Source of the DNA: Geobacter metallireducens GS-15
Lineage (GTDB): Bacteria; Desulfobacterota; Desulfuromonadia; Geobacterales; Geobacteraceae
Direction: 5' to 3'
Assembly: GCF_000012925.1 (NCBI RefSeq)
Contig: NC_007517.1
Coordinates: forward strand, 600,001-632,000
DNA length: 32,000 nucleotides
Numbering within the stretch: the first letter of the stretch is position 1; each line of letters opens with the position of its first letter. Below the pieces are notes generated by a model, which saw only the letters and a list, made by a program, of their open reading frames with translations, was not told the origin of the DNA and made no database searches. This document shows, in pieces, positions 1,354-20,727 of the stretch. A program made the translations under genes and the position numbers.

Positions 1354-3852
1354 ATGACCATCTCATTGTTCAGGATTGCTTTCGTCTGCACGGTGCCGAT
1401 ACTCGCGCTGCTGGTGCTGCTGGCGCCTCGGAGCGCGTCTGCCGGCGTCATCACGGCCGATACGGTCTGGACGGGGAGCGTCACGGTGACCGAAGACGTG
1501 CTCGTCCCCGAAGGGGTCACCCTGACCGTCCGCCCCGGCACCTCCATAACGGTTGTTGCGGCGGAAAGCACCAAGACCGATCCAGAGTACCTCTCTCCCC
1601 TTAATGAAATAACCGTGCGAGGCACCCTGACAGTGGAGGGGACGGAAAAGGAGCCGGTCCGGTTTTCCGGCGCGGAAAAAAAGAAGGGGAGCTGGGCCGG
1701 GATTCTCGTCGATGGCGGCACGGCCGCGATCCGAGGGTGTCGTATTTCTGACGCGGACACCGGCGTTTCGGTGACGGATGGAACGCTCCGGCTGACCGGA
1801 TCGGCGCTGTTGGAGAACCGGTACGGTCTCGTGGTGCAGGGGACAAAGGCCCGGGTTGCCGTGGCCGACTCGCGGATCACTGGCAACGATTACGGTATCT
1901 TCACCCTCCAGGGGGCCCGGGTGGCAACCAGCGCCACGGAGGTGGCTCGCAACGGGAAGAAGGACACCTACGCGGCAACCTCTCGTGGGCAAATCCCCCC
2001 GAAGGCGCAGCCAGTCAACGATGGCGCGCCCGTGGGCCGTCGCTACCGCGACATGGTCCTCCTGGGGGAAACCGTCTGGCAGGGAAGGATCGAGATCGAC
2101 GGAACGGTGCGGGTCCCCGAGGGGAGCAGGCTGGTCATCCTGCCGGGAACCATCGTCGAGTTCACCCGGCGGGACACCAACGGCGACGGCATCGGCGAGA
2201 ACGGCATCATGATCCAGGGGCGTCTTGTGGCCAAGGGGACGGCCGAGCGCCCCATCACCTTCCGCTCGGCCGCGAAGGTGCGACGGATGGGGGATTGGGA
2301 CGCTGTCAATATTATGAACAGCTCAACGGGCCAGAACCTCATCGAGTACTGCCGGATCGAGGATGCCTATCGGGGGCTCCATTTCCACTTCTCCACCGTG
2401 GCGATCCACAACACCACCCTCACCGGCAATTACCGGGGCATCCAGTTCCAGGAATCGATGGTGGTGATGCGGGGCAACACCCTCTGCGGCAATCGGAGCG
2501 GCGTCCAGGGGCGGGATTCCGAGGTGGAGCTGACGGACAACCTCATCTGCACCAACCAGGTGGGGGGGAATTTTTTCCGGACCACCCTCACGGCCCAGGG
2601 GAACAGGATCGTCGCCAACGGGAGAGAAGGGCTCCGCGTGCGGGAGGGAGCCGCCACCCTTCGGGAAAACCTCCTCGACGGCAACCGCTTCGGCCTCCTG
2701 GTGGCCGACCTCTACCACGGCGAAGTGAGCCGCAACAGCATCACCAACAACACCGAAACCGGTATTTCCCTCAAGAACGTCGACACCATCGACATCGCAG
2801 GCAACGTGGTGGCGGACAACGGATTGAACGGCTTCAATATCCAGGACTGCGGCGCGCTCATCACCGGGAACCTGGTCACCGGCAACGGCGAGCGGGGGAT
2901 GGGAATCCAGTCCTTTGCCGGGCGCATCAGCGGGAACGACTTCGGCGGGAACGGCCTCTACGCCATTGACCTGGACGGGAAGGACGACGTGGCCGCCCCG
3001 GGCAACTGGTGGGGAGGGGACGATCCGGCGCGGGTCGTTTTCGACCGGCACGATGATTCGGCGCTGGGGCTTGTCCACTATGATACGGCCAGTGCCGCAC
3101 CCATCCCCTTTGTCTGGCCGCTGCCATTTGTGGCCTCAGATGCGGTCTGGCGCGGCGTCATCACCGTTGCCGCGCCCACAACGGTCCTCCCCGGCGCGGT
3201 CCTGACCGTGGCCCCGGGGACGACGGTGCAGTTTGCCGGCGGCGCGGGGCTCGAAGTCAAGGGCAAGCTAATTGCAGCGGGAAAGCGGGACAGCAGGATC
3301 GTCTTCACCTCCGTGGAACGCAAGGGTGCCTCGGACTGGAACGAGATTCTGCTGGAATATGCCACCGGCAGCGTCATTGCCCACTGTCTCGTCGAGTACG
3401 CCACCTGGGGCATTCACAGCCACTTTACCGATCTCTCCGTGTCTGATAGCGTCATTGCGCACAACTATGGCGGCATGCGCTTCAGGAGCGGCCCGGTACA
3501 GATCCGCCGCTCCCTCTTCCGGGACAACACCATCGGCATCAGGTCGTACATCGGCAACGCCCTCATCGCGGACAACCTGATCACGGGGAACGAGACAGGA
3601 ATCTTCGTCCGGGAAAAGGGGGGCGGGCTGACGGTGACGGGAAACAGCATCTCCGGCAACAGCGGCTATAACATGCGGATCGGCGATTTCAACGACGAGG
3701 ACGTGAATGCCCGGGGGAACTGGTGGGGCGAGGGAGACCCCGGCGAGACGATCTTCGACGGCCGGCAGGAGCCGGGGATCGGGATGGTTCTCTTTGAGCC
3801 GCACCTGACGAAACCTCCCACCGTTGGTCCCGGAAGCGGAGAAACGCCATGA
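1354..3852 (+). CDS. secreted right-handed parallel beta-helix repeat protein (NosD/CASH/pectate-lyase-like), ~832 aa
   Basis: ORF 1237..3852. I place the start at in-frame ATG 1354 because MTISLFRIAFVCTVPILALLVLLAPRSASA is a classic signal peptide. The 1237 extension would read through the hairpin. Many short G-N/I-x-x-N repeats are typical of beta-helix coils (ITGNDYGI, LTGNYRGI, CGNRSGV, ITNNTETGI, VADNGLNGF, VTGNGERGM). Two NWWG(G/E)xDP motifs are present. Confidence 0.8.
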   Translation: MTISLFRIAFVCTVPILALLVLLAPRSASAGVITADTVWTGSVTVTEDVLVPEGVTLTVRPGTSITVVAAESTKTDPEYLSPLNEITVRGTLTVEGTEKEPVRFSGAEKKKGSWAGILVDGGTAAIRGCRISDADTGVSVTDGTLRLTGSALLENRYGLVVQGTKARVAVADSRITGNDYGIFTLQGARVATSATEVARNGKKDTYAATSRGQIPPKAQPVNDGAPVGRRYRDMVLLGETVWQGRIEIDGTVRVPEGSRLVILPGTIVEFTRRDTNGDGIGENGIMIQGRLVAKGTAERPITFRSAAKVRRMGDWDAVNIMNSSTGQNLIEYCRIEDAYRGLHFHFSTVAIHNTTLTGNYRGIQFQESMVVMRGNTLCGNRSGVQGRDSEVELTDNLICTNQVGGNFFRTTLTAQGNRIVANGREGLRVREGAATLRENLLDGNRFGLLVADLYHGEVSRNSITNNTETGISLKNVDTIDIAGNVVADNGLNGFNIQDCGALITGNLVTGNGERGMGIQSFAGRISGNDFGGNGLYAIDLDGKDDVAAPGNWWGGDDPARVVFDRHDDSALGLVHYDTASAAPIPFVWPLPFVASDAVWRGVITVAAPTTVLPGAVLTVAPGTTVQFAGGAGLEVKGKLIAAGKRDSRIVFTSVERKGASDWNEILLEYATGSVIAHCLVEYATWGIHSHFTDLSVSDSVIAHNYGGMRFRSGPVQIRRSLFRDNTIGIRSYIGNALIADNLITGNETGIFVREKGGGLTVTGNSISGNSGYNMRIGDFNDEDVNARGNWWGEGDPGETIFDGRQEPGIGMVLFEPHLTKPPTVGPGSGETP

Positions 3853-4538
3853 GGGGACTATTCTGGCTGGCGGCGGCATGGCTGCTGCTCTTCTGTGCCG
3901 TGCCCGATGGCGCCCGGGCGGCGCTCCTCCGGGGGCGGGTGGCGGATATCGACGGCAAGCCCTTGGCGGGGGCAAAGCTCTTTGTCTACGACTCGGCCAA
4001 CGTCCGGCGGCCGGCAACCTTCATTTCTCCCCCCTCGGCGGCGGACGGAACCGTCGTCGTCACGGTGCCGCCCGGAACTTACTGGGTGGTGGCGCGGCTC
4101 AAAAAGGACGATTCCTACGGTCCGCTCATGCCGGGCGAAAAGCACTCGGGTGAGCCTGTTGTCGTGGACCTGACCGCGGAAGCCGAGGCCGCGCAGGAGT
4201 TCACCGTGGCTGATATCCGTGACTTGGGGCGCAAGCACCGGGCCATCGCTACGGAGTCAGTGAGGCTTTCGGGTCGGGTGCTGGATGGTGAGGGGAAGCC
4301 GGTGGCCAATGCCTATGTGTTTGCCTCGGCCACCAGAGACGGCGGCCGGATTCCCGACTATCTATCGGCATGGACCGGTGCCGACGGCGGCTACACCCTC
4401 ATGATCCCCGCCGGACGGACGTACTATGTTGGCAGCGCCACGCGTTTCCCGATGTCCGCATGGCACCCTTCGACGGAGGTTGTTCCCGCTGCCGGGAAAA
4501 CGGAGGTTGCGCTGGATGTGGGGTTGGCGCTAGACTGA
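3849..4538 (+). CDS. secreted protein with two carboxypeptidase-regulatory-like (CarboxypepD_reg) beta-sandwich repeats
   Basis: ATGA start/stop overlap with the upstream gene. Signal peptide is MRGLFWLAAAWLLLFCAVPDGARA. It has two copies of the motif (L)xGRVxDxxGKPxAxAxxF...DG.Y...PG.Y.V. Confidence 0.75.
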   Translation: MRGLFWLAAAWLLLFCAVPDGARAALLRGRVADIDGKPLAGAKLFVYDSANVRRPATFISPPSAADGTVVVTVPPGTYWVVARLKKDDSYGPLMPGEKHSGEPVVVDLTAEAEAAQEFTVADIRDLGRKHRAIATESVRLSGRVLDGEGKPVANAYVFASATRDGGRIPDYLSAWTGADGGYTLMIPAGRTYYVGSATRFPMSAWHPSTEVVPAAGKTEVALDVGLALD

Positions 4539-4597: not shown

Positions 4598-5158
4598 ATG
4601 AAAAAGCTTTTCTGCTGCATCGTGGCGGTTTCGATTCTCGCTGTTGCTCAACTCTCCGGGGCCTGTGTCGGGCGAACGCTCCACATCGGCGTTTCCAATA
4701 CCGCCAACGAGCGGCTGCTGGGGGAGATGATCTCCATCCTCATAACCGAGCGGACCGGGACGTCGGTGAAGGTTCAGGTCTACCGGGACAGCAGGGAGCT
4801 GTACGGCGCCGTGAGGAAAGGGGAGGTGAACCTCCTGGTGGAAACCCCGGACCGTGCCCTGGAGGTGCTGGGAAAACAGAAGGAGGCAAACGGCGGGAAT
4901 TCCCGTGACCTGATCAAGAGCGGCTACCGTTCCACGTTCAATCTTGCCTGGCTCGAACCCTTCGGCGGTTCGCCCCAGTATGCTCCCGTCCTCACGGTCG
5001 AGACCCTGAGCAACTACCCGGCCCTCCCGAAACTGTTGGCAAAGCTTTCGGGCGCCCTGAACAACGACGCCTATGCCCGGTTGCTCAAGTCGTCGGATGC
5101 CGGCGGCAAGTCCCGCAAGGCGGTCAGGGATTTCCTCAAGGCGAAGAAGCTGATCTGA
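4598..5158 (+). CDS. short OpuAC-like (glycine-betaine-binding fold) periplasmic protein, probable lipoprotein
   Basis: The N-terminus MKKLFCCIVAVSILAVAQLSGAC is signal/lipobox-like. LHIGVSNTANERLLGEMISILITERTGTSVKVQ...AVRKGEVNLLVE resembles the N-lobe of OpuAC-family binding proteins. At 186 aa it is shorter than a full binding protein. Confidence 0.6.
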   Translation: MKKLFCCIVAVSILAVAQLSGACVGRTLHIGVSNTANERLLGEMISILITERTGTSVKVQVYRDSRELYGAVRKGEVNLLVETPDRALEVLGKQKEANGGNSRDLIKSGYRSTFNLAWLEPFGGSPQYAPVLTVETLSNYPALPKLLAKLSGALNNDAYARLLKSSDAGGKSRKAVRDFLKAKKLI

Positions 5159-5165
5159 TTCATCC

Positions 5166-6110
5166 GTGCCCGTGACACAGCCCGATCTCCTTAAACGGAC
5201 GGTCCGCTTCCTCGCCTCGACGGAACTGGCCGTTATCCTGTTCCTGGCAACAGCCCTCCTGGCCATCCCCGGCACCTTCACCGACAGCAGGGCACTCTAC
5301 GTCCATCCGGTTTTCCTCTGCCTACTGGGGGGGCTGGCCCTGAACCTCGTCCTCTGCACGGTGCGCCGGTTCCGGTCCATTTCGGTGCCGGTGCTGATCC
5401 TGCACCTGGGAGTGCTGGTGGTCTGCGGCGGCGTCATGGCCCGGGCTTTCGGCTACGTGGCCACCGTCAACATCTATGAGGGAACCACGGTGGACACGGT
5501 CTACCGGTGGGACCTGAAACGGGATGTTCCCCTGGGCGCCGCGCTGACCATCAAGCGGATCAACCGGGAGTATTACCCGATCCCGGTCAAGGTGGGAGTA
5601 CTCAGGGGGACGGTGAAGGATTCCCTCCACACCCTGAAGACCGGCGACAGCTTCGCGGCGGGACCCTACCGCGTAACGGCGGATTCGCTCCAGTTCCCCG
5701 CGGAAGTCCTCAAACTCTCCGTCTTTCAGGACGGACGGCTGATAGGCACCTGCGACACCGGGGGGCTGAGGGCGCTCCCGGCGAACTTCCCCTACGATTT
5801 CAAGCTGGTGGCGTTCCAGAATCCGGTCATGAAGCGCCTCTGGGTCGATCTGGCCCTCACGCGCGATTCCGCTCCCGCGGTGTCGGGAACGGCCGCGGTC
5901 AATGACCCCTTTATCTGGAACGGGCTCTATTTCTACAATACCCAAGTGGATGTGGATAAGGTGGGCACGCCTTTTGCTGGGATCCAGGTGGTGAGGGATC
6001 CCGGAAGACCCTGTGTTTTCGCCGGGTTCGCCATCATGGGGTTCGGGTCGATTCTGTCATGCGCCCGGCGGTTGAGGAAGGAACAACGGAAAAAGACGGT
6101 TTCGGAATAG
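5166..6110 (+). CDS. short ResB-like cytochrome c biogenesis protein (314 aa)
   Basis: The N-terminus LLKRTVRFLASTELAVILFLATALLAIPGTF is the typical ResB/Ccs1 opening helix. It has further TM helices and a C-terminal TM (GFAIMGFGSILS). It uses a GTG start 8 nt after the upstream stop. Confidence 0.7.
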   Translation: MPVTQPDLLKRTVRFLASTELAVILFLATALLAIPGTFTDSRALYVHPVFLCLLGGLALNLVLCTVRRFRSISVPVLILHLGVLVVCGGVMARAFGYVATVNIYEGTTVDTVYRWDLKRDVPLGAALTIKRINREYYPIPVKVGVLRGTVKDSLHTLKTGDSFAAGPYRVTADSLQFPAEVLKLSVFQDGRLIGTCDTGGLRALPANFPYDFKLVAFQNPVMKRLWVDLALTRDSAPAVSGTAAVNDPFIWNGLYFYNTQVDVDKVGTPFAGIQVVRDPGRPCVFAGFAIMGFGSILSCARRLRKEQRKKTVSE

Positions 6111-6129: not shown

Positions 6130-8031
6130 ATGGCTGTAAACATCTTCGGATCAAAACCAAAGGAGGCGTGCGAGGTCCACGGACACCATTCGGGGTCCGG
6201 GAACCGGATGCTCGTCGCCATGATTCTCATCTCCCTCTCCCTGGTGGTGTGGCACGTCGGGTCCACCGGCACGGGGGGGCACCCGGCAGCCTCCGGGGCC
6301 GCGCCGGTCCCGTTTCCCGTGCGGCTCGGCAGCGAGCTCCGGGATCTGTTCTTCAGCGATCACGGCGTCCTGGCCGAACTCCGGGACGTGTTCCCCTACT
6401 TCCTCGTCGGCATCCTCATCGCCGGATATCTCCGCACCTTCAAGATCGCCGTCAAGCTCCAGGCCAAGCTCCGGAAGTACGGCGTGCTCAGCGTCTTTAT
6501 CGCCTCCTTCGTGGGGATCATCACCCCCCTGTGCGCCTGCGGCACCGTGACCACCGCCATCAGCCTCCTGGTGGCGGGGATTCCCCTGGCGCCGGTCATG
6601 GCCCTCATGGTGACCTCGCCGCTGCTGAGCCCCTCCACCTATCTCCTCACCCTGAACGATCTCGGCCCCGAATGGACCGCCATCAGGACCATCTCCGCTC
6701 TCTCCATGGGGATCTTCGCCGGTCTCGTCACCCACTTCCTCAGCAATCGGCCCGGGTTCCGGAAAAACGAAATCTTCATCGAGGGGGCCCTGGTGAGGGG
6801 GGACTTCCACGACGAGGACTATCCCGACGAGCGGCTCCGGTGCAACTGCCGGCGCCAGTTCGGCAACCGGATCGCCGTCAGGACCGGGAACAAGTTTCTC
6901 ATCTTCCTGGCCAAGTCCGTGGAAATGCTCTGGGTGGTGGGGAAGTACGTCATCGTCGGCGTCGTCATCGGGGCCGTGGTGGAGCGGTACATGCCCCAGG
7001 AGTGGGTCTACCGCTTCTTCGGCCAGGGGGACCCCCTCGGCATCCTCTGGGTGACCCTGGCATCGGTGCCCATGTTCCTGCACCAGATCAGCGCCTCCAG
7101 CATCATCCACCACATCAAGGGCTCCCTTGGCGGAACCCTCGACGCCGGCGCGGCCCTGGCGTTCATGATCGGTGGGCCGGTCACCGCCGTGCCCACCATG
7201 GTGCTCTTCTGGAGCTTCTTCCGGAAGCGGGTCTTTTTCCTCTACATGTTCGTCTGTCTCTCGGGAACGCTCCTCATTGCCTACGCGTTCCAGGCTCTCG
7301 TCTTCACGCCCGGCGTCGATATCGGGAATCCCCTGCTGAAGGGGGTCGCTTCGCTGTCGGGGGGGGAGGCCTCCGTCATTGCGAAGCAGGATGCCAACGT
7401 GCGGATGGTTCTGGACCCGGGAGGCAAGGGGGTTGTCGCCACCTACAGCAACGCGGTTGACGGCCGGGGACCCGTGGTGTTCGACGGGGTACGGGGGCGT
7501 TTCACCGCTTCCCTGGCCAACCGGTATGACAATCGGGCCTACATCGGCAACATCGCCGACTGGCTCGGGGAGAACTCCCTCACCGCCGCCTCCGCCAAGA
7601 TTCTCGTCTACAGCCTCGGCAATGGTGCCGGCGATGCCGCATCGCTCCTGGGAGAGAAGACCCTGGCCGAGCTGGGTGCCAGGGGATTTACCGTCAAGGC
7701 GGTCGAAAGGCATGATGTGCCGCGAATTACCGAGGGGGTGCTGGCAGGCTGCGGCCAGGTGTGGCTCTTCTTCGGCGACGACCACGCCGACGGGTTGAAC
7801 GATGCCGAAGTGAAGCTCCTTGCGGACTTTAATGCCAACGGGGGGGGCGCCCTGATTGTGCCCGGCGTGGCGAACACCCGCGGGGCCAACCTCCTTGTGT
7901 CCCGCTATGGCGTGACCTTCTCCGGCGTTGCCGACAACGGTCCGGAGGTGCGGGTTTCCGCCGCGTCAACGGTTCTCAACCGGACCGCCGAGTGGCTCGG
8001 CTCCGTTCTGAAACTGGTAAAAAAGGCCTGA
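6130..8031 (+). CDS. ArsP/DUF318-type permease fused to a ~200-aa C-terminal soluble domain
   Basis: Multiple TM segments contain the family-typical GIITPLCACGTV and SPLLSPST stretches. The N-terminus is His/Cys-rich (ACEVHGHHSGSG). From about aa 430 onward the sequence is hydrophilic (ILVYSLGNGAGD...VWLFFGDDHADGL...GGALIVPG), which looks like a Rossmann-like alpha/beta domain. The start is uncertain: 6130, or in-frame ATG 6208. Confidence 0.75.
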   Translation: MAVNIFGSKPKEACEVHGHHSGSGNRMLVAMILISLSLVVWHVGSTGTGGHPAASGAAPVPFPVRLGSELRDLFFSDHGVLAELRDVFPYFLVGILIAGYLRTFKIAVKLQAKLRKYGVLSVFIASFVGIITPLCACGTVTTAISLLVAGIPLAPVMALMVTSPLLSPSTYLLTLNDLGPEWTAIRTISALSMGIFAGLVTHFLSNRPGFRKNEIFIEGALVRGDFHDEDYPDERLRCNCRRQFGNRIAVRTGNKFLIFLAKSVEMLWVVGKYVIVGVVIGAVVERYMPQEWVYRFFGQGDPLGILWVTLASVPMFLHQISASSIIHHIKGSLGGTLDAGAALAFMIGGPVTAVPTMVLFWSFFRKRVFFLYMFVCLSGTLLIAYAFQALVFTPGVDIGNPLLKGVASLSGGEASVIAKQDANVRMVLDPGGKGVVATYSNAVDGRGPVVFDGVRGRFTASLANRYDNRAYIGNIADWLGENSLTAASAKILVYSLGNGAGDAASLLGEKTLAELGARGFTVKAVERHDVPRITEGVLAGCGQVWLFFGDDHADGLNDAEVKLLADFNANGGGALIVPGVANTRGANLLVSRYGVTFSGVADNGPEVRVSAASTVLNRTAEWLGSVLKLVKKA

Positions 8032-8094: not shown

Positions 8095-8415
8095 ATGAAA
8101 TCACAGGTTTTTGATGTCCAGAAACTCAAGAAGTTCACCGACGAAAAACGCCACCAGGAGACCATCTGGTCCGATGACCACGCCCGGGTGAGCCTCATCT
8201 GCATGAAGCCGGGCCAGGAGATTATCACCCACACCCACCACGGCAGCCACATCTGGATGGTCATGGAGGGGACCGGCGAGTTCCTTTCCGGCAAGCAGGT
8301 CCAGACCATCACCACGGGGCAGATCGTCATCGTTCCCGCCTTCGAGGACCACGGCATCCGGAACGGGTCCCAGGAGAACCTCGTCATCGCCTCCATAACG
8401 GGGCAGGGGGATTAA
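8095..8415 (+). CDS. cupin domain protein (106 aa)
   Basis: AGGAGG (8083-8088) precedes ATG 8095. The cupin motifs GQEIITHTHHGSHIWMVMEGTGEF and IVIVPAFEDHGIRN are present. Confidence 0.85.
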   Translation: MKSQVFDVQKLKKFTDEKRHQETIWSDDHARVSLICMKPGQEIITHTHHGSHIWMVMEGTGEFLSGKQVQTITTGQIVIVPAFEDHGIRNGSQENLVIASITGQGD

Positions 8416-8422
8416 AGCCTTC

Positions 8423-8565
8423 AATAACACGGAGAGACGGAGAACACGGAGTACTACAAATTCATTATTGCTAGATTGTTGTCAGACTGACATCTCTTGT
8501 GCAGAATTTGAGCAAATCAAAGCAATGTATTGATTTCTCCGTGCCCTCCGTCTCTCCGTGTTATT
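8423..8565. repeat. palindromic intergenic repeat element, copy 1 (29-bp terminal inverted repeats)
   Basis: The left arm AATAACACGGAGAGACGGAGAACACGGAG (8423-8451) is complementary to the right arm CTCCGTGCCCTCCGTCTCTCCGTGTTATT (8537-8565) at 27 of 29 positions. Each arm is built from three ACGGAG units. A related copy lies at 11761-11902. Confidence 0.85.
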
Positions 8566-8601
8566 CAGCAGTGGTTTGTGAGAGCGAGGAAGGTGAACAA
8601 C

Positions 8602-8916
8602 GTGAAGACGATACATCGCAACCCCAACGTCATGTGGCGCGAGGAGGCCGATGCCCTGGCCCGGGTCCAGGAGGCCATGGACCGGGGAGAGGAAGTGGAG
8701 GAGACCGGGACCTCGGTCCTCTTCTCCGGCGGGACCATGCTCTCCCTCAATTTTCTGGGGACCGAGATCTGGAAGCTCTGCGACGGCCGGGCCCTGGACG
8801 GCATCGTAGCGGAGCTCCTGCCACAGTTCGAGGTGGACGAGGCGGTGCTCCGGGAGGACGTCCGGGCTTTCCTGGACGAGCTGGCCGCCAAGGGGTTCGT
8901 CAGCCATGCCGAATGA
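8602..8916 (+). CDS. PqqD-family protein (RRE-type peptide chaperone), ~104 aa
   Basis: In ORF 8530..8916 the first 24 codons lie inside the repeat arm. I prefer GTG 8602, preceded by GGAAGG (8588-8593). The body (VLFSGGTMLSLNFLGTEIWKLCDGRALDGIVAELLPQFEVDEAVLREDVRAFLDELAAKGFV) is a typical PqqD fold signature. Its stop overlaps the next gene by 11 nt. Confidence 0.8.
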   Translation: MKTIHRNPNVMWREEADALARVQEAMDRGEEVEETGTSVLFSGGTMLSLNFLGTEIWKLCDGRALDGIVAELLPQFEVDEAVLREDVRAFLDELAAKGFVSHAE

Positions 8917-9904
8917 GGTTGTCCTCGAAGCGCCGTTGACTATCAACTGGGCCATCAACAACAGCTGCAACTTCGCCTGCCGCCACTGCTACAGCCGTGG
9001 GGACACCCACGAGGAGCTCCCCCGGGAGGTCCTTCTCGCCTGTCTGGAAAAGGTGGCGCAGGCCGGGGTCTTCTCCGTCAATTTCGGCGGCGGGGAGCCG
9101 CTTCTCCATCCCGGTATCCTGGAGATCGCCTGCCACGCCAGGAGCCTGGGGCTGCGGATCTCCATGAACAGCAACGGCTGGCTCCTGGACCGGGAGATGG
9201 CCGGGGCGCTGCGGGACGCTGGCTTCACCAAGGTGGGGATCAGCATCGATAGCCACATCCCCAAGGTCCACGACCGGTTCCGAGGCGTTGCGGGGAGCCA
9301 CGGCCGGGCCGTGGCGGCCCTGGGGGACCTGGCGGAGGCCGGCATCGACACCTCCATCTCCACGGTCATCTGCCGGATCAACAATACCGCCATCGACGAC
9401 CTGGTGGCCTTTGCCCGGGAGCAGGGGGCGCGGCAGCTCAACTTCCACAACTTCAAATGCTCGGGGCTCGGCCTTTCCCACAAGGATGAACTGGACCTGA
9501 CGCCGGAGGAGTGGCAGGAGTTCTACCGGCGCGCCCTGGCCGCCAGGGACGGGGAGAAGGGGCTCGACATCTCCCTGGATGATCCGATCATCGCCCTTCT
9601 GGGGGCCCGTGACACCGGAAGCCTCGTCAAGGGGAGCGTCTGCGGCAAGCTCTCCCTCAACATCAAGGCCAACGGCGACATGACCCCCTGCGGCTTCATC
9701 CCCATCGTCATCGGCAACATCGTCCGGGACGACCTGAAGCAGGTCTGGCGCGATTCGGCGGTGCTGGAGAAGATGCGCAACAAGAAGCCCACGGGCAAAT
9801 GCGCCGGCTGCGGCAAGTACGAAGACTGCCTCGGCGGCTGCTCCGCCCGGGCCCTGGCCCTCACCGGCGACCTGAACAGCCCCGACCCCCACTGCTGGGC
9901 GTAA
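8906..9904 (+). CDS. radical SAM / SPASM domain protein (peptide-maturase type)
   Basis: CNFACRHC is the CX3CX2C SAM-cluster motif and GGGEPLL is a SAM-binding motif. The C-terminal Cys-rich SPASM region is CGKLSLNIKANGDMTPCGF...GKCAGCGKYEDCLGGCSARA...DPHCW. Confidence 0.9.
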   Translation: MPNEVVLEAPLTINWAINNSCNFACRHCYSRGDTHEELPREVLLACLEKVAQAGVFSVNFGGGEPLLHPGILEIACHARSLGLRISMNSNGWLLDREMAGALRDAGFTKVGISIDSHIPKVHDRFRGVAGSHGRAVAALGDLAEAGIDTSISTVICRINNTAIDDLVAFAREQGARQLNFHNFKCSGLGLSHKDELDLTPEEWQEFYRRALAARDGEKGLDISLDDPIIALLGARDTGSLVKGSVCGKLSLNIKANGDMTPCGFIPIVIGNIVRDDLKQVWRDSAVLEKMRNKKPTGKCAGCGKYEDCLGGCSARALALTGDLNSPDPHCWA

Positions 9905-9940
9905 TCCCCGCTCCGCTCCCTGCCGGATCAAGGATGATTC

Positions 9941-10810
9941 ATGGAACTGGCATCCCCCATAACCATCTACTGGGACCTCCCCCCCGACGCCCATGAGCCG
10001 TCCCGGCTCATGGGAATCGCCGCCGACATCGTCCCCTGCCGGCCCCTCATGGTATGGATCACCTGCACCGCGCCGACCCTGCCCGACGGGCTCGGAGCGG
10101 TGCTGGAGCGGTTCCGGGAGAGCTCCATTTCCGTTATCATCACGATTGCCCTTTCAACCCGGGACGAGTCTGTCCGGGCCCTTGCAGGACAGGGGCTGGT
10201 CCGGGAGTTCCTGCTTGCCGTTGACCATGCCGGTCAGCTCGATACCGGGGAATGGAAGGGAATCGCGCCCGTGGGGATATCCTTCGCGGTGACCTCCCGG
10301 AACTGGCGCGAGCTCCCCGACCTGATGCACCAGTGCCCGGGCTACGGCATCACCCGCCTCGTGCTCCCCATGCAGCGTCTCTATGGCGACGAGCCTCCCT
10401 TCTTCCTCACCTCCCGGGAGCAACAGGAACTGGCGGATGCCCTGGCCTCGGCGGGGGGGACGTCGGGGCTCACGCTCACCATTCACGACCCCTTCCTCTG
10501 GCGGGCCTTCAATCCCGGCGTCCCCTTTCCCCAGGGGGGGTGCCAGGCGGCAAACACCATGATCGCCATCGCCCCCGACGGCGGGGTCTATCCGTGCCCT
10601 TCCTTGCCGGTGCGCCTCGGCACCGTGGGGGAGGCGTCCCTGAAGGAGATCATCGCATCCATGGCAAAGAAGGATGTGCGGCAAAGGCTCCTGGAGCATC
10701 CCGGCGCCTGCATGGCGTGCGGGGATGTGGCGGAGTGCCGGGGGGGATGCCGCGGAAGGGCATACGTCGTGCATCAATCGCTGGAGGGGGAAGACCCCGC
10801 ATGCTGGTAA
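9941..10810 (+). CDS. SPASM-domain protein lacking the radical SAM CX3CX2C motif
   Basis: No CX3CX2C occurs anywhere; the N-terminus reads ITIYWDLPPD. The C-terminal SPASM-type Cys pattern is retained (GGCQAANTMIAIAPDGGVYPCPS...GACMACGDVAECRGGCRGRAY...DPACW). This tail is paralogous to the C-terminus of the upstream gene. Confidence 0.85.
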   Translation: MELASPITIYWDLPPDAHEPSRLMGIAADIVPCRPLMVWITCTAPTLPDGLGAVLERFRESSISVIITIALSTRDESVRALAGQGLVREFLLAVDHAGQLDTGEWKGIAPVGISFAVTSRNWRELPDLMHQCPGYGITRLVLPMQRLYGDEPPFFLTSREQQELADALASAGGTSGLTLTIHDPFLWRAFNPGVPFPQGGCQAANTMIAIAPDGGVYPCPSLPVRLGTVGEASLKEIIASMAKKDVRQRLLEHPGACMACGDVAECRGGCRGRAYVVHQSLEGEDPACW

Positions 10811-10847: not shown

Positions 10848-11753
10848 ATGATACGTTCAACCTTCAGGCGTTTTCTGCTGTTGTTCCTCCCCCTGCTCCT
10901 CCTTGCCGGCTGCAAGGGCGAAGGGAGCCGCCCCGTGGTGAAGATCGGCTACATGCTCTGCAACAACGAGCAGGAAACCATGTCCCGCTTCCTCCCCCTG
11001 ACCCGCTACCTTTCCGATAAGTGCGGCGTCGACTTCGTGGCGGTGCCGGTGGATACCCACGATTTCGAGAAACGGTTCAAGGCCGGGGAGTTCACCTTCA
11101 CCCATTCCAACTCCCTCATCTACGTCATCCTCCACGAGAACGAGGGGGTTCAACTGCTGGCCTCGGAGAAACGGGGGAAATTCGGCGCCCGCAGTGCCGG
11201 CGCCCTCATCGCCCGCAAGGGGAGCGGCATCGAAAAGCTCGCCGACATCCGGGGGAAGCGCCTCGCCTTCGGCCCCATGCTGGCCCCCACCGGGTATCTG
11301 GCCGAGTACGACCTGATGCTTTCCGCCGGCATCAACCCGGAGCACGACCTGGGGACCTACTCCATTCCTCCCGGCTCCTACAAGCATGAAAAGCTCATCT
11401 ACGGCGTCCTCTACGGCCAGTACGACGTGGCCGCCGCCCCCATCCTCGACCTTGAAACCATGACCCGGGAGGGGAAAATCGCTGCCGACGATTTCGTCAT
11501 CCTCGCCCAGAGCAAACCGGTTCCCTACTGCACCTTCGGCGTGGCCAAGGGGGCCGACCCGGCCCTGGTGAAGAAGGTAAAGGAGGCGCTCCTGGCCCTG
11601 AAACCCGCCGACACCGCCGAGGTGGACGGCGAACGGATCAAGGTGCTGAAGGCTGCCTGGATCGACGGCTACGAGGAACTCCTCGACAGCGACTACGACT
11701 CCATCCGCGAAATGGCGAAACGGGTGAATATGCCGCCGTATCAGAAGTACTAA
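10848..11753 (+). CDS. PhnD-like (phosphonate-binding family) periplasmic substrate-binding lipoprotein
   Basis: Signal/lipobox is LLLFLPLLLLAGC. VKIGYMLCNNEQETMSRFLPLTRYLSDKCGVDFVAVPVDTHDFEKRFKAGEFTFTHSN and GKRLAFGPMLAPTGYL resemble the PhnD/Phosphonate-bd family. Confidence 0.8.
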   Translation: MIRSTFRRFLLLFLPLLLLAGCKGEGSRPVVKIGYMLCNNEQETMSRFLPLTRYLSDKCGVDFVAVPVDTHDFEKRFKAGEFTFTHSNSLIYVILHENEGVQLLASEKRGKFGARSAGALIARKGSGIEKLADIRGKRLAFGPMLAPTGYLAEYDLMLSAGINPEHDLGTYSIPPGSYKHEKLIYGVLYGQYDVAAAPILDLETMTREGKIAADDFVILAQSKPVPYCTFGVAKGADPALVKKVKEALLALKPADTAEVDGERIKVLKAAWIDGYEELLDSDYDSIREMAKRVNMPPYQKY

Positions 11754-11760
11754 GAAATTT

Positions 11761-11902
11761 AATAACACGGAGAAACTGAGGGCACGGAGAAAAAACCAAG
11801 CCTGACAGATAAGTTGTGAATCGATGCTGCTATGCTCAGTCATGGATTTTCTCTGGGAGATAGGTTTTGATTCCTCCGTGTTCTCCGTCTCTCCGTGTTA
11901 TT
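11761..11902. repeat. palindromic intergenic repeat element, copy 2
   Basis: The left arm is AATAACACGGAGAAACTGAGGGCACGGAG (11761-11789). The right arm is CTCCGTGTTCTCCGTCTCTCCGTGTTATT (11874-11902). The right arm is the exact reverse complement of copy 1's left arm. The interiors share stretches (CTGACA...TTGTG..AAT, TTGATTyCTCCGTG) in the same orientation. Confidence 0.85.
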
Positions 11903-11903
11903 C

Positions 11904-12458
11904 ATGCTTATGGTGACTATGTTCAACGACACCTTCGACAAAATAACCTGGGCGCTTCTGGCGTTCGTGATCGTAGCCCTCGCAGCCCTTCTGGCCATGA
12001 ACCACGGCGCGGGGGATGGCAAGGCCGCGGGCCTCGGCAAGGCGGTGGAGCGGGAGATGGCCTACCGCGCCCGCATCGAGCTGATCGGCAAGCTCTACGG
12101 TCCGGTGGAGGATCTGCGCAAGGCGGGGAAAAACCAGGAGGCGCTCCTGAAGCTGGATGAGCTGATCAGGAGCTATCCCGGCGAGGCCCACGGCTACATC
12201 CTTCAGGGGGAGATCCTCCGGGAGATGGGTGCCCTGGACGAGGCGGTGGCCTCCTTCGAGGCGGGGGTGAAGCTCAACGGCGACTACGTGGACGCCAGGA
12301 GCCCCCTGTCGCGGCGCGGCGCGATTCAGGGGCTCGTGGACGAGGGGCTCAGGAGCATCGGTGGCCGGGCCGCGGCCAATCCCGGCAACCGGAGCCTGGC
12401 GGCCTCGCTCGCCAAGGTCAACTACCTCAAGAGCAGGCTGGCCGGGGGGTGCGAGTGA
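11904..12458 (+). CDS. membrane-anchored TPR-repeat protein
   Basis: ORF 11895..12458. The GTG at 11895 lies in the repeat arm, so an ATG at 11904, 11910 or 11919 is more likely; the start is uncertain. It has one N-terminal TM (ITWALLAFVIVALAALLAM). The TPR-like helices are GKNQEALLKLDELIRSYPGEAHGYILQGEILREMGALDEAVASFEAGVKLNGDY. Confidence 0.7.
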   Translation: MLMVTMFNDTFDKITWALLAFVIVALAALLAMNHGAGDGKAAGLGKAVEREMAYRARIELIGKLYGPVEDLRKAGKNQEALLKLDELIRSYPGEAHGYILQGEILREMGALDEAVASFEAGVKLNGDYVDARSPLSRRGAIQGLVDEGLRSIGGRAAANPGNRSLAASLAKVNYLKSRLAGGCE

Positions 12459-13519
12459 TGCTGCGGGACCGGCATTTCTGGATGGTGGTGGCGGCAGGGC
12501 TTCTCCTCGGGGGGCTCGGGGCGCTCCTGGCGGTCTGGGGGAACCCGGAGAACTCGGGAATCTGCGTCTCCTGCTTCATCGAAAACAGCGCCGGCGCCCT
12601 GGGGATGCACGATAACCCCCGCATGCAGTACCTGCGCCCCGAACTGATCGGCTTCGTCCTCGGCGCCATGGCCAGTGCCCTCCTCTTTCGCGAGTTCCGT
12701 TCCCGGGGCGGGAGCGCCCCACTGCCGCGGCTCTTCGCGGGGATCTTCCTCATGGTGGGGTGCGGTGTCTTCATCGGCTGCCCCATCAAACTGTTCCTCC
12801 GGCTGACCGCCGGGGACCTCACCGCCGTTGCCGGGGTCGCGGGGCTCGTGGCCGGGGTCTGGGCAGGGCTCCGGGGGCTTGCCAACGGGGTTGAACCGGG
12901 CCAGACGAGCCGGGGCCAGGGGCACGGTGGTCCGCTGATACCGGCCTTTTTCATCCTTCTCCTCGTCTTCCTCCTCATCCGTCCCGGTTTCATCCTCTTC
13001 TCCACCCAGGGGAGCGCCGCCCAGCATGCACCCGTACCCCTTGCCCTGGGGGCCGGCGTCGTGCTCGGCGCTTTGGCCCAGCGGAGCCGCTTCTGCATCA
13101 CCGGCAGCATCCGGGACGTCTTCCTCATGGGGAAGCGGACCCCCGCCCTCTGGGGGATGCTCGCCTTTCTGGCCGCGGCGGTCGCCGCCAACCTTGCCAC
13201 GGGAAGGTTCAATCCCGGTCTCCACGGCCAGCCCGGCGCCCATCTGGAGCACCTCTGGAGCTTCCTCGGCATGGGGCTCACGGGGTGGATCTCCGTCCTC
13301 ATCGGCGGCTGCCCGTTCCGCCAGCTCATCAAGGCCGGCGAAGGGGATGCCGATGCCGGTCTCGTGGTGGTGGGGATGTTCATCGGCGGCGCCCTGGTGC
13401 AGTCGTGGGGGATCGCCGCCACGGCGGCCGGGGTCTCCCTGACCGGGAAGGTGGCGATTCTTGCCGGCTTCGCCTCGGTACTTGCTGCCTCCCTCCTCTT
13501 CCGTAGTCGGAGTATCTGA
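12458..13519 (+). CDS. YedE/YeeE-family transporter (putative selenium/thiosulfate uptake)
   Basis: ATG 12458 overlaps the TPR stop (TGATG). The protein is polytopic and carries the family-typical Cys motifs GICVSCF, GCGVFIGCPIK and GGCPFRQLIKAGEGD. Confidence 0.8.
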   Translation: MLRDRHFWMVVAAGLLLGGLGALLAVWGNPENSGICVSCFIENSAGALGMHDNPRMQYLRPELIGFVLGAMASALLFREFRSRGGSAPLPRLFAGIFLMVGCGVFIGCPIKLFLRLTAGDLTAVAGVAGLVAGVWAGLRGLANGVEPGQTSRGQGHGGPLIPAFFILLLVFLLIRPGFILFSTQGSAAQHAPVPLALGAGVVLGALAQRSRFCITGSIRDVFLMGKRTPALWGMLAFLAAAVAANLATGRFNPGLHGQPGAHLEHLWSFLGMGLTGWISVLIGGCPFRQLIKAGEGDADAGLVVVGMFIGGALVQSWGIAATAAGVSLTGKVAILAGFASVLAASLLFRSRSI

Positions 13520-13680: not shown

Positions 13681-13779
13681 AATTTTATAGTTACCAAGAA
13701 ATTCCCGCATGTCGTGGCGACGTTCAGAGGCAGGGAGGCCGAAGGCAGGCAAATTCGTATGGGGTGCTGGAGGCATGAT

Positions 13780-16700
13780 ATGAAGCCGATACTAGTGGCA
13801 ACGGCCGCCATGATTTCCGTGATGCTTCTGACGGTAACCGGTGCCGGTGCCGCCATGCAGTGTTATGACTGCCACGGGACAAGCGCAACCACGGATTACC
13901 GCCCCGTCGACGCCACCTACCGCAATATCTCCACCGGCGGCTTCAAGGGGAATCACCAGACCCACATGGGAAGCGGAGCCTCTTCCGCTGACTGTGCCGT
14001 CTGTCACGGCGGTGGGGCAACATCCTATCTGAACAGTCACCGCAGTGGCAATGTCGATATCGCCGCCAACATCAACAATTCTCCCGCTACCGGAACTTAC
14101 AGCCGCGGCACCTCCTTCGCCCAGAGCACCACGCCGACCCTCGGCACCTGCGCCACCGTCAACTGCCATTTTGAAGCCGCCACCCCCACCTGGGGAGCCG
14201 ACCCCTCCCTGACCACCTGCAGCACGTGCCACGGCGCGGCGCCGGCCGACGGGAGCCATCCCGCCACCTCGGGAAGCGGCAAGAAGCACGGCGACTACTA
14301 CGGCCTCACCACCAGCTCCTGCGTCAAGTGCCATCCCGACCACACCGCTGAAGCCAAGCCCTTCGCCCATGCCACGAGCGCCGGCAACCGCGCCCTTGTC
14401 GTCGCCTTCAATGCGGCACCCAACAGCGGCTTCGGCCGCTACACCGGCAATACCAATTACCCGAACTATCTTCCGAGCCAGGCTCCCCCCCGCAACGGCA
14501 CCTGCAAGAACCTCTACTGCCACAGTAACGGCAGTCGCGGTTTCGCCCCCTACACGAGCAACGTCACCGCAACGTGGGGCGGGTCACTCACCTGCAAGGG
14601 GTGCCACAAGGCGGATATCGCATCGGGAAGCGTCATAACGAACGGCAGCCACCAGGGCCACGTAAACGGCATGACCATCGGCTACACCCAGATCAAGTGC
14701 GTCAAGTGCCATGCCGCCACCACAAACAGCAGCATGACGATCGTCAACACCGCCAACCATGTGGACAAGCAGGTAACGGTTGCTTTTAACAATACTTCCT
14801 CTGCCGCCAATGGCTCCTATAATGGCCAGCTTGCCAAGCCGGCGACCCCGTCCACCAAGGCCCCCGGTTCGGCGGTGGGCCAGTGCGCCACGGTCTACTG
14901 CCATTCGAGCGGCCAGGGGGATGGCGGCACCTGGCCCCCCACCTACCAGACCCCCACCTGGGGAACCTACGCAACGGGCCAGTGCGGCACCTGCCATGGC
15001 ATCCAGACCAAGCACGACGCCTCGGGCTTCGGCTACGGAACGCCGACCCCCATGACCACTGGCAGCCACACGAGGCACCTCCTCTTCCAACTGGGCACCG
15101 GCAACGTCAGCGCCGAGCGCAAGTGCGCCGCCTGCCATTCTTACATCCTCACCGGTTATGCGCCGAATGCATGCAGTTCCACGGTCTGCCACAACGGCAT
15201 GGTCCAGAAGCACGCCAACTACGAAATCAATGTGGGCATCCCCGACTATTACGGCGCCACGGCCACCTACAATGCCGCAAGCCTGACCCCCGGCACCGGC
15301 TACAGTTCCTGCTCCAACGTCTATTGCCACAGCAACGGACTTACGACCTCTCCCACCTATTACACCCCCACCTGGGGGACCGTAGCTGATGGCGCCTGCG
15401 GCACCTGTCACGGCGTCACCGCCGCCGCGCCTCCGGCCTCTGTCCCCCACGTGAAGCACATGGGGATCGCCAACCAGTACCGCTTCGCCTGCGCCGAGTG
15501 CCACAGCGGCAAGGTTCAGGTGACCGCCAACTCAACGGCCGCCCCGACGTTCACCAACCTGACGAGCCACGTGAACAAGTCGCGGGATGTGAAATTCGAT
15601 CCGACCAACCCCTTCGGCACTTACTCCACGGCGAGCCTGAGCTGCCGCAACCTGTACTGCCATTCCACCGGCAACACCAGCGTTGCATCGGGCAATTTGC
15701 CCGGCGTCTACGGCGGCAAGGTCTATGCGCGTGTCACATGGTCCGGAAGCGTCACCTGCACCTCATGTCACGGCCGCTCCACCGCCAACGGCATGCCTGA
15801 CTATACCAACGCCGGCACGCCCGGTTCCGATACGGCCAACAGTCACCCGAAACACGTCACGAGCAGCACCATCCAGTGCGTCGAGTGCCATGAAAAGACC
15901 ACGAAGAACAACACCTCCATCCGGCCGACTACGCCCAGCTACCATGTCAACGCCACGAGCCACGATGTCTTCTTCAACCTGAGCGGTCTGAGTCCGAGCG
16001 GCACCTATGACAGTGCCCTGAAGAAATGCTCCAATACGTATTGCCACGGGGCCGGAGCTTCAGTTGCCTGGGGCGGGACCACCTACTGCAACTCCTGCCA
16101 CAGCGCCAATGACGGCACGTCCGGCGGTGGCGGCATCAACAACTGGGGCGCCGGCGTAAGTGCCCACACCCTGCATGTGGAAGAGACAGCCACGCTTCCG
16201 TCAAAATACGCCAACTACTCCACCGGCAACCTGGGGAGTGCCGCCGCCTACCGTTTTGCCTGCGCCTCGTGCCACAATCCGGCCACAACCATCCACCTGA
16301 GCGGCTACGCCAGCGGCAGCTACCGGGCCCAGGTCTTCTTCGGGTACACCGCGCCGGGCAAGAAGCCAGCGTACACCTACACCGGCACGGCAGGGACGGC
16401 CGACAACGGTTTTGGCTGGTCCAACGGCAACACCGTCTGCAACCAGACGTACTGCCACTCAAACGGCGTAGGCGGCACCGGCGCCGCCGTTTCATGGGCC
16501 ACCACCGCCAACACCGCCGGCGTGGGGAGATGCCAGAAATGCCACGGCAATGCCACCTATACCGCCGATTATCGTGGCGCCGCACCCTTGTACGCTTCAG
16601 GCTCCATCAGCTACAAAGGCTCGTCCAAGGGGAACGCCCACCAGCTCCATATCGATGCCGGGTCGGGCGCCGCTGCGGCGAGCGATCCCCAGTGCCTGCA

Positions 16701-19326: not shown

Positions 19327-19356
19327 TAGTCTAGGTTTGCGACGTACCTCAAGGCG

Positions 19357-20679: not shown

Positions 20680-20727
20680 ATTGGATTACGTCTTCACAAG
20701 AGGGCTTGAACGAAGGGAACGGTTGCC

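Follow-up and report, generated by a model that had tools for sequence, protein, structure and literature searches.

The GeoRSP genes and a short peptide gene in Geobacter metallireducens

We analyzed a stretch of 32,000 nucleotides (nt) of the Geobacter metallireducens GS-15 genome (the window, to which coordinates refer unless another locus is named) that contains three adjacent genes on the same strand in the order that defines the GeoRSP system: PqqD, radical S-adenosylmethionine (SAM)/SPASM and SPASM-only. At the head of the gene block in which this trio lies is a gene for a peptide of 20 amino acids (aa), the candidate GeoRSP precursor. The PqqD gene (Gmet_0565; 8602–8916, +) has a GTG start within a longer open reading frame (ORF; 8530–8916). 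Its product scores 186.8 bits with TIGR04302 (cut-off 100), whose positions 1–102 of 102 align to residues 1–102 of the version starting at 8602, and 67.5 bits with PF05402. The radical SAM/SPASM gene (Gmet_0566; 8906–9904, +) overlaps it by 11 nt and encodes a protein with the CX3CX2C motif (CNFACRHC) and matches to TIGR04303 (640.5 bits, cut-off 400; model positions 1–325 of 325), PF04055 (85.6 bits) and PF13186; its closest solved sequences are PqqE (75 bits) and, second, SkfB. The SPASM-only gene (Gmet_0567; 9941–10810, +) follows after a gap of 36 nt, with 37 nt separating it from the next gene. Its 289-aa product matches TIGR04304 (398.4 bits, cut-off 300; positions 1–293 of 293) and TIGR04085 (44.5 bits), and PF13186 is its sole Pfam match; the PF13186 scores of Gmet_0566 and Gmet_0567 are 37.0 and 35.1 bits.

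By these scores the trio is a member of a named, uncharacterized radical SAM system. The initial annotation, made from the sequence alone, had given the three ORFs with the same overlap and gap, had read them as a PqqD-like chaperone, a complete radical SAM/SPASM enzyme and a SPASM-only paralogue that keeps the SPASM Cys pattern and has no CX3CX2C anywhere, and had put forward the name GeoRSP. The sequence and the family models bear out each of these points; the name is right for three of the three proteins, each over its curated cut-off, and agrees with the NCBI annotation of G. metallireducens and its relatives, which already carries GeoRSP names for the trio. Window proteins have exact GS-15 protein records (ABB30807, ABB30809, ABB30810 and ABB30811). 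The numbering of Gmet_0559 (beta-helix, see below), Gmet_0565 (PqqD), Gmet_0566 (radical SAM) and Gmet_0567 (SPASM) is that of entries in the supplement of PMC10989804, where the last three are among the differentially expressed genes; according to these entries they are transcribed, with a modest 2.1- to 3.9-fold variation between co-culture partners. A search of the available literature found no publication that mentions GeoRSP, the sequence of the 20-aa peptide or the locus tag Gmet_3586. The trio as such is already known; what is added here is the peptide family, the pseudo-enzyme pairing, the peptide copies that trail cytochrome genes and the conserved block.

The relationship of Gmet_0567 to the enzyme extends past the SPASM domain, as seen already in a BLASTP alignment with Gmet_0566 (29% identity, E = 5e-15). 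When 33 homologues of Gmet_0567, drawn from Geobacteraceae, Nitrospirota and uncultured compact clusters, were aligned with the enzyme family by hhalign, residues 2–289 matched 6–331 with 99.7% probability (E = 1.6e-26), and a gap of 16 residues in Gmet_0567 coincides exactly with the CX3CX2C loop. That motif is absent and CX2CX5CX3C is kept in 33 of the 33 homologues. The AlphaFold2 model of Gmet_0567 (predicted local distance difference test score 87.6, predicted template-modeling score 0.88) begins with strands that alternate with helices and continues into the SPASM region; its best PDB matches are the peptide-modifying radical SAM/SPASM enzymes SuiB, PqqE, CteB, TigE, anSME and SkfB (template-modeling scores 0.57–0.68 over the query). 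Because the profile alignment runs end to end, the motif is lost throughout and the fold matches are to radical SAM enzymes, Gmet_0567 is, as judged from sequence and predicted fold, a full-length pseudo-radical-SAM paralogue of the enzyme with the SAM-cluster loop deleted, and an ancient, stably maintained partner of the active enzyme. The SPASM pattern in both proteins is a seven-Cys arrangement that includes CX2CX5CX3C and is predicted to provide sites for two auxiliary clusters.

The peptide gene (Gmet_3586; 1221–1283, +) encodes MKKKSYVRPRIVGSAAVHPC and is preceded by a Shine-Dalgarno sequence, GGAGG, 5 nt before its ATG. It follows a cytochrome gene recognized by family models (54–1106) and occurs as a single copy within the window, where 0 are expected by chance. 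With the hidden Markov model (HMM) of the peptide family it gives E = 8e-14, compared with E = 1.8 for the next-best, unrelated match. Downstream is a 16-bp GC-rich hairpin followed by CUUUUGGG (1302–1349, +; ΔG −38.3 kcal/mol, z = −6.7, 0 of 200 shuffles as stable), which, with its CUUUU, is probably a terminator or attenuator after the peptide gene. A scan for consensus promoters and terminators around this short ORF (sORF) found nothing; the hairpin was seen by folding only, because its loop and U-run lie outside the scanner rules. The exact 20-aa sequence is annotated as the hypothetical protein Gmet_3586 (AFR42800.1). Eight members of the family, each of 20 aa, and two variants of the window peptide with longer reading frames, ten sequences in all, were looked up in a collection of 15 billion proteins, and the only one present was the 20-aa GS-15 sequence; no model in Pfam or NCBIfam covers the peptide, which we refer to as the VHPC peptide after its C-terminal residues. 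The family is missed by gene callers.

Linkage of the peptide family to GeoRSP loci

A search of genomes with the Gmet_0566 enzyme gave 45 species-level GeoRSP loci (L001–L045; 46 including the window). Among them are loci of Geobacter, Geomobilimonas, Pelotalea and Geopsychrobacter and of metagenome-assembled genomes (MAGs) of Pelobacteraceae, Desulfuromonadaceae, Nitrospirota and Thermodesulfovibrionia, so the restriction of the system to Geobacter given in the initial annotation does not hold. Clustering of intergenic sORFs across the loci produced one credible family, of 18–20 aa, with the pattern MKK(xx)Y(x)(K/R)P(K/R)(I/V)VG(S/N)(A/S)xVHPC-stop. Other conserved sORF clusters were rejected, since each proved to shadow a real small gene (CrcB, DUF190, NikR or FmdE) in antisense or out of frame.

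We take the peptide as a candidate precursor because its linkage to GeoRSP emerges from two independent search directions. From the enzyme side, a search of all six-frame fragments with the peptide HMM detects the peptide in the window and, in 19 copies, in 17 of the 45 loci (E ≤ 7e-10; next match E = 1.8), that is, in 18 of 46 GeoRSP loci. Most of these copies sit just 5' of the NosD-like gene that opens the conserved block, and second copies precede CarboxypepD_reg paralogues. The window, 16 further species loci of this set and G. pickeringii have the peptide inside the conserved block, and in G. pickeringii it is at the block head as in the window; in the Geopsychrobacter locus (L044) it comes directly after the enzyme gene.

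In the opposite direction, starting from the peptide, metagenome contigs were searched with a degenerate DNA pattern of the peptide core, and at least 120 loci matched. In at least ten of these (L057, L072, L077, L082, L093, L098, L108, L115, L132 and L140), as in the Geopsychrobacter locus, the peptide gene is directly beside GeoRSP genes. Two (L115 and L132) have the full order YedE, PqqD, radical SAM, peptide and SPASM-only, then a class V aminotransferase; L072 has the same order from PqqD onward with a partial YedE-like ORF upstream, and L093 has PqqD, radical SAM, peptide and SPASM-only. The six other loci are cut by contig ends and show either the radical SAM gene then the peptide or the peptide then the SPASM-only gene. 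Wherever both flanks are visible, the peptide gene is between the radical SAM and SPASM-only genes. The radical SAM proteins of L044, L072 and L115 score 441–448 bits with TIGR04303 (cut-off 400), while the PqqD and SPASM-only proteins of L072 and L115 have the GeoRSP models as their best match, under the cut-offs. The aminotransferase of L115 is a TIGR01977 protein (444 bits, cut-off 377) with the selenocysteine lyase SclA as second-best match. By gene order, these loci appear to have the genetically linked short precursor gene that is a feature of pathways for ribosomally synthesized and post-translationally modified peptides (RiPPs). The suggestion in the initial annotation that the trio modifies a distantly encoded small peptide, such as the sORF at 1221, is thereby favored, with the family in 18 of 46 loci and beside GeoRSP genes in at least 11 others. 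The data speak neither for nor against its two further suggestions, modification of a protein or cytochrome and synthesis of a cofactor for the PhnD-like protein.

Every listed pattern match from the at least 120 loci is a genuine MKK...VHPC-stop sORF, and metagenomes from sediment and groundwater are rich in the family. Among 135 distinct DNA versions listed, all four codons are used at every four-fold site, Ser at core position 9 is encoded by both the AGY and the TCN box, His precedes Pro-Cys in 133 although the pattern allowed Gln and Tyr, and the stop codon is TGA in 90, TAA in 35 and TAG in 10. Such free synonymous variation, with two Ser boxes, a retained His and three stops, indicates that selection, as read from these alignments, is acting on the amino-acid sequence of the peptide and not on a DNA or RNA element. 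A Shine-Dalgarno-like motif precedes 124 of 126 listed copies. A strong hairpin lies 3' of 92 of 142 listed family members (mean ΔG −28.4 kcal/mol, compared with −18.0 for shuffles), and the hairpin sequences differ by locus.

Three other explanations of the sORF were rejected. Selenocysteine at the TGA codon is inconsistent with the 45 of 135 listed versions that end in TAA or TAG; a repeated DNA element made of sORF and hairpin is inconsistent with freely varying synonymous sites and differing hairpins; and a leader ORF is inconsistent with the varied flanking families and with the 31 of 112 listed downstream genes that lie on the opposite strand.

Other radical SAM genes are found near a few peptide copies. 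In L027, a copy is just downstream of a gene for a 504-aa B12-binding radical SAM protein (18636–20365 of that locus, minus strand), 8.6 kb from the trio; this protein is possibly a second tailoring enzyme. In L049 and L050, two genes downstream of the peptide gene encode products of 700 and 405 aa, and the next encodes another kind of radical SAM protein, which has CX3CX2C and is only 26–27% identical to the GeoRSP enzyme.

The conserved block and its cytochrome context

Synteny was counted in the 30 loci of at least 17 kb and scored by tblastn matches, because the greedy ORF caller often chose antisense ORFs in GC-rich DNA. The trio lies in a block of about 13 genes that is conserved in 27–28 of these 30 full-length loci, with the genes counted singly present in 22–28. 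Trio gene order is the same in 28 of 30, as is the presence of the SPASM-only gene, and a GeoRSP PqqD-family gene occurs in 44 of the 45 species-level loci. The conserved partners form a NosD-like/CarboxypepD_reg/ResB-like module and a PhnD-like/TPR/YedE module.

In the window, all block genes are on the + strand. The first after the peptide gene encodes Gmet_0559, a NosD-like protein that has a parallel beta-helix and a signal peptide (1355–3852; PF05048 104.9 and PF13229 108.8 bits; 28/30 loci). Its longest ORF, from 1237, overlaps the peptide gene and the hairpin, and the signal peptide begins at ATG 1355, which is likely the true start. It is followed by a secreted CarboxypepD_reg protein (Gmet_0560, a number we assign by inference; 3849–4538; PF13620 53.4 bits; 28/30), paralogues of which adjoin peptide copies elsewhere, by a 186-aa substrate-binding-protein-like protein (4598–5158; weak PF04069 match; 28/30) and by a 314-aa ResB-like membrane protein (5166–6110; weak, partial PF05140 match of 36.4 bits; 27/30). 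An ArsP_1-type permease comes next (6130–8031; PF03773 133.2 bits; 22/30), which scores 111 bits with the SO_0444 Cu/Zn efflux family, under the cut-off. Its 233-aa soluble C-terminal domain (7330–8031) has no Pfam match and could be a processing or docking domain. The last gene before the trio encodes a 106-aa cupin (8095–8415; PF07883 50 bits; 22/30).

Downstream of the trio are a PhnD-like substrate-binding lipoprotein (10848–11753; PF12974 177.6 bits, LLAGC lipobox; 27/30), a membrane-anchored TPR protein (11895–12458; weak TPR matches; 25/30, always between the PhnD-like gene and YedE) and a YedE-family putative selenium/sulfur transporter (12449–13519; TIGR04112 422.5 bits, cut-off 200; 27/30). 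Family models thus recover the three downstream neighbors described in the initial annotation. In compact clusters, YedE is directly upstream of PqqD.

Several relatives depart from this arrangement. The ArsP permease and cupin are swapped out in L006–L009, L011, L015, L036 and L168 (at about 6.2–8.7 kb in locus coordinates) for a His-rich NicO-type nickel/cobalt permease, a TPR lipoprotein and a 330-aa NosD-like protein, which suggests that this slot is concerned with metal handling. A gene for an FmdE-family protein with a DksA/TraR zinc ribbon (175–217 aa) is inserted between the SPASM-only and PhnD-like genes in L004, L005, L012, L016, L019, L020, L025, L027 and L028; these loci belong to one Geobacteraceae clade and, L027 excepted, have no peptide gene within 10 kb. 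The Nitrospirae MAG loci L039–L043 have PqqD and an enzyme over the TIGR04303 cut-off (461 bits in L040), with no SPASM-only gene, YedE or peptide within 10 kb; upstream of the pair are several NosD-like paralogues, and downstream is DinB. A NikR-like regulator is just past YedE in L004, L005, L016, L018, L027 and L034. We rejected a nickel link on this basis, as NikR in L027 sits by a CbiM/CbiO transporter that it probably regulates. Outside the window, Table S2A of PMC10989804 includes entries for a second cluster (Gmet_2654–2664), with a '4Fe4S-binding SPASM domain' protein, a methyltransferase, ankyrin/TPR proteins and secreted proteins, which are up 7–27-fold with M. acetivorans relative to M. 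barkeri.

The gaps beside the trio contain no precursor-sized ORF among the window ORFs, and the earlier statement that no precursor lies next to the trio is true of the G. metallireducens genome. The 186-bp gap 5' of PqqD is filled, as the initial annotation had it, by a repeat element. This inverted-repeat element (8423–8565; 29-nt arms, 85-nt spacer) has a second copy, found by repeat search, at 11761–11902, and the two bracket exactly Gmet_0565–0568. Their arms are 29–32 nt long and built of TCTCCGT repeats, with spacers of 78–85 nt; four arm copies occur in the window, where 0 are expected by chance, and the element is absent from the corresponding gaps in relatives. In sequence the elements fit a class of sites described for the G. 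metallireducens genome, the 'class 2 predicted global regulator binding sites', which have three TCTCCGTS[Y] repeats with sites paired on opposite strands (PMC2700814), and are putative sites of this class. No Rfam family was matched anywhere in the window at gathering thresholds, so the gap elements are not known RNAs.

The trio was also said to be embedded in a cytochrome island. In G. metallireducens, cytochromes do flank the block: in addition to the gene at 54–1106, a window scan finds the 34-heme cytochrome Gmet_0571 (1870 aa; 13714–19326), and family models find ResB/CcsB (19357–21564). This is not the conserved context of the trio, as a multiheme cytochrome (at least four CXXCH) is within 10 kb in 9 of 30 loci; the island is therefore a trait of GS-15 and some relatives and not of the system. 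The peptide is present in 8 of the 9 full-length loci with such a cytochrome and in 7 of the 21 without. Among 100 listed metagenomic peptide copies with a visible upstream gene, the same-strand upstream neighbor is a giant multiheme cytochrome or a member of its family in 36, a CarboxypepD_reg/NosD-like protein in 14, an FN3-repeat giant in 8, a Big-like protein in 6 and an FG-GAP protein in 6. The cytochrome context belongs to the peptide gene, not to the enzymes. Peptide copies sit right behind giant multiheme cytochrome genes, in some cases next to cytochromes for which a role in the reduction of Fe(III) oxide and in electron transfer between species has been implicated in G. metallireducens. 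A different setting is found in L085, L095, L106, L129, L133, L151 and L152, where a DnaJ/TerB-like gene and an HD-domain gene precede the peptide and a gene for a Bax-inhibitor-like membrane protein follows, which suggests lineages with the peptide gene amid unrelated genes.

Proposed maturation of the peptide and comparison with known systems

The best explanation of these observations, to which we assign a probability of about 0.6, is PqqD-guided maturation of the VHPC peptide by GeoRSP, with the trio as the putative catalytic core of a ribosomal-peptide maturation system and the peptide as its candidate substrate. PqqD would bind the basic N-terminal part of the peptide and present it to the radical SAM/SPASM enzyme, which would modify the invariant C-terminal V-H-P-C end via a 5'-deoxyadenosyl radical. 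Gmet_0567, having lost the SAM cluster and kept the barrel and both auxiliary-cluster sites, would be a non-catalytic partner, acting either as an electron relay that takes up the electron from the oxidative reaction or as a second peptide-binding subunit.

MftC, AhbD and NirJ, the nearest characterized relatives of the enzyme, catalyze oxidative decarboxylations or remove carboxylate side chains. By analogy with MftC and AhbD and with the sacti- and ranthipeptide synthases, two kinds of chemistry seem most likely. Our first guess would be an MftC-like oxidative decarboxylation of the C-terminal Cys (−46 Da), because of the chemistry of these relatives and the free carboxylate of that Cys; the second would be a Cys thioether or C–C cross-link (−2 Da), as in sacti- and ranthipeptides. 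The constant YedE and PhnD-like neighbors and the cysteine-desulfurase/selenocysteine-lyase-like enzyme keep a sulfur or selenium transfer step in view, a direction drawn from the persistence of YedE and from the TIGR01977 enzyme in compact clusters. Export of the product, possibly via the ArsP-type permease, is suggested by the presence of a permease of the ArsP or NicO type and of NosD-like and CarboxypepD_reg proteins in the periplasm. The exported product may have an extracytoplasmic role alongside giant surface proteins, for example multiheme cytochromes, and the NosD-like, CarboxypepD_reg, PhnD-like and YedE proteins.

More speculatively, and with low confidence, the GeoRSP product could represent a new class of very small peptides, with a His-Pro-Cys end that is decarboxylated, cross-linked or loaded with sulfur or selenium, that serve as exported redox- or metal-active partners or cofactors of giant extracellular proteins, above all multiheme cytochromes. 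If this were true, it would explain the peptide copies that trail cytochrome genes across many sediment bacteria. A functional link between peptide and trio would reveal an unrecognized small-molecule or peptide component of extracellular electron transfer, possibly tied to sulfur/selenium handling.

Several observations weigh against maturation of this peptide by GeoRSP. The peptide gene is 7.3 kb from PqqD in the window; 28 of the 46 species-level loci have no peptide within 10 kb, and the G. uraniireducens-type locus L166 has neither the peptide nor a variant within that distance. For most listed metagenomic copies, the short flanks include no GeoRSP gene, and the genes before these copies encode cytochromes or other secreted giants, so the peptide could have a role independent of GeoRSP. 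The block has no evident leader peptidase, and the nearest characterized relatives of the enzyme in HMM searches include the tetrapyrrole enzymes AhbD and NirJ2 as well as MftC. An independent peptide would be a small protein in its own right or a cis-regulatory ORF of giant secreted proteins, its proximity to GeoRSP genes would be coincidental or indirect, and GeoRSP would modify another substrate or make a cofactor bound by the PhnD-like protein. The 36 in 100 listed copies behind multiheme cytochromes, others behind FN3, Big-like or FG-GAP giants, and the roughly 8% of listed copies by GeoRSP genes agree with such independence, as does the Geobacteraceae clade in which most GeoRSP loci have no peptide nearby. 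However, GeoRSP is rare, and yet the peptide adjoins its genes in at least 11 independent loci and heads the block in 17 more. A regulatory leader is also hard to reconcile with a gene that has its own Shine-Dalgarno sequence and terminator and flanking genes that vary in family and strand. Precursors of the PqqA/MftA type are small, with a basic N-terminus and invariant C-terminal residues, and the peptide fits this description. We consider independence unlikely; if the GeoRSP link is nevertheless not functional, the VHPC peptides would still be a new RiPP-like precursor family.

It is improbable that the substrate is instead a larger block protein, modified before export as by anSME or QhpD, with the sORF unrelated. 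The cupin is the best-conserved block protein (72–98% identity) and lies directly 5' of PqqD in relatives (gap 3–42 bp), and NosD-like genes are the most persistent neighbors, their paralogues alone preceding the PqqD/radical SAM pair in L039–L043; however, the compact clusters and 8 of 30 loci have no cupin, the NosD-like proteins are poor in Cys and carry no leader-like extension apart from the signal peptide, and a coding-selected 20-aa gene beside GeoRSP enzyme genes is left unexplained.

Placement of the enzyme with heme or sirohem-pathway families, which the initial annotation had named as the result that would count against its proposal, was not obtained when the models were run: after GeoRSP, the best characterized-family scores of Gmet_0566 are 172.9 bits for NirJ2 and 171.1 for AhbD (each with a cut-off of 500), followed by NirJ (143), NirJ1 (128) and AhbC (122.6), with heme-pathway cut-offs of 500–650. 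That the enzyme acts on a tetrapyrrole or heme derivative, tailoring heme for the giant cytochromes in the manner of AhbD, AhbC or NirJ, is quite improbable, since those scores, the AhbD score of up to 221.7 bits in L072, the ResB-like gene in the block and the cytochromes and ResB/CcsB pairs flanking it in G. metallireducens are offset by a similar score for the peptide enzyme MftC, the occurrence in 44 of 45 loci of a dedicated peptide chaperone of the PqqD family, a peptide gene that adjoins the enzyme genes in compact clusters, cytochromes within 10 kb in a minority of loci and a ResB-like match that is weak and partial.

With peptide maturation as the preferred reading, the closest parallels to GeoRSP are mycofactocin and pyrroloquinoline quinone (PQQ). 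Like mycofactocin (MftA, MftB and MftC), GeoRSP combines a stand-alone PqqD-family chaperone, a radical SAM/SPASM enzyme and a very short candidate precursor with a conserved extreme C-terminus. MftC (TIGR03962) is among the best non-self matches of GeoRSP enzymes, at 164–206 bits, under its cut-off of 265 (Gmet_0566, 164.3). Unlike mycofactocin, GeoRSP has an additional pseudo-radical-SAM partner, secreted and membrane accessory proteins, and no MftD/E/F-type genes; family-model scans found no mft genes among the window proteins. MftA ends in Val-Tyr, whereas the GeoRSP candidate precursor ends in VHPC. In the PQQ system (PqqA, PqqD and PqqE), too, a PqqD chaperone and a radical SAM/SPASM enzyme are paired with a precursor roughly 20 aa long, with PqqE both the closest solved sequence of the enzyme and a top fold match of Gmet_0567. 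It differs in that the GeoRSP proteins score under the PQQ cut-offs (PqqE TIGR02109, 111.1 bits with a cut-off of 381; PqqD TIGR03859, 37.5 with a cut-off of 46), pqqB/C/F genes are absent, and the peptide is without the Glu...Tyr pair of PqqA.

The sacti- and ranthipeptide synthases (CteB, SkfB, AlbA and PapB) and SuiB are peptide-modifying radical SAM/SPASM enzymes; those synthases act on Cys-containing cores, and SuiB, CteB and SkfB are top structural matches of Gmet_0567. However, the sacti- and ranthipeptide enzymes have a fused N-terminal RiPP recognition element and longer, multi-Cys precursors, whereas GeoRSP has a separate PqqD and a single C-terminal Cys, and the GeoRSP enzyme scores far under the cut-offs of the synthase HMMs. 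Methanobactin-type operons, which specify a RiPP metallophore along with an exporter, are similar in gene content only: in both cases a short precursor with Cys is accompanied by a binding protein of the periplasm, a membrane permease and copper- or metal-associated periplasmic proteins (here NosD-like and ArsP/NicO). Unlike these operons, GeoRSP has no MbnB or MbnC homologues and would use radical SAM chemistry, and metal binding by its product is purely conjectural.

A precedent for a radical SAM/SPASM paralogue without the SAM-cluster motif is the TIGR04347 pseudo-SAM/SPASM family, the model of which scores Gmet_0566 at 142 bits (cut-off 525). Unlike that family, the GeoRSP pseudo-enzyme is paired with an active paralogue, and even if the peptide link proves not to be functional, GeoRSP is a clear example of such a pairing. 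With respect to GeoRSP itself (TIGR04302/TIGR04303/TIGR04304), the window trio is a full member with no difference from the family definition, which names no substrate, and the system extends beyond Geobacter. An orphan so far, GeoRSP took its name from nothing more than gene order, and the candidate precursor makes its direct testing possible.

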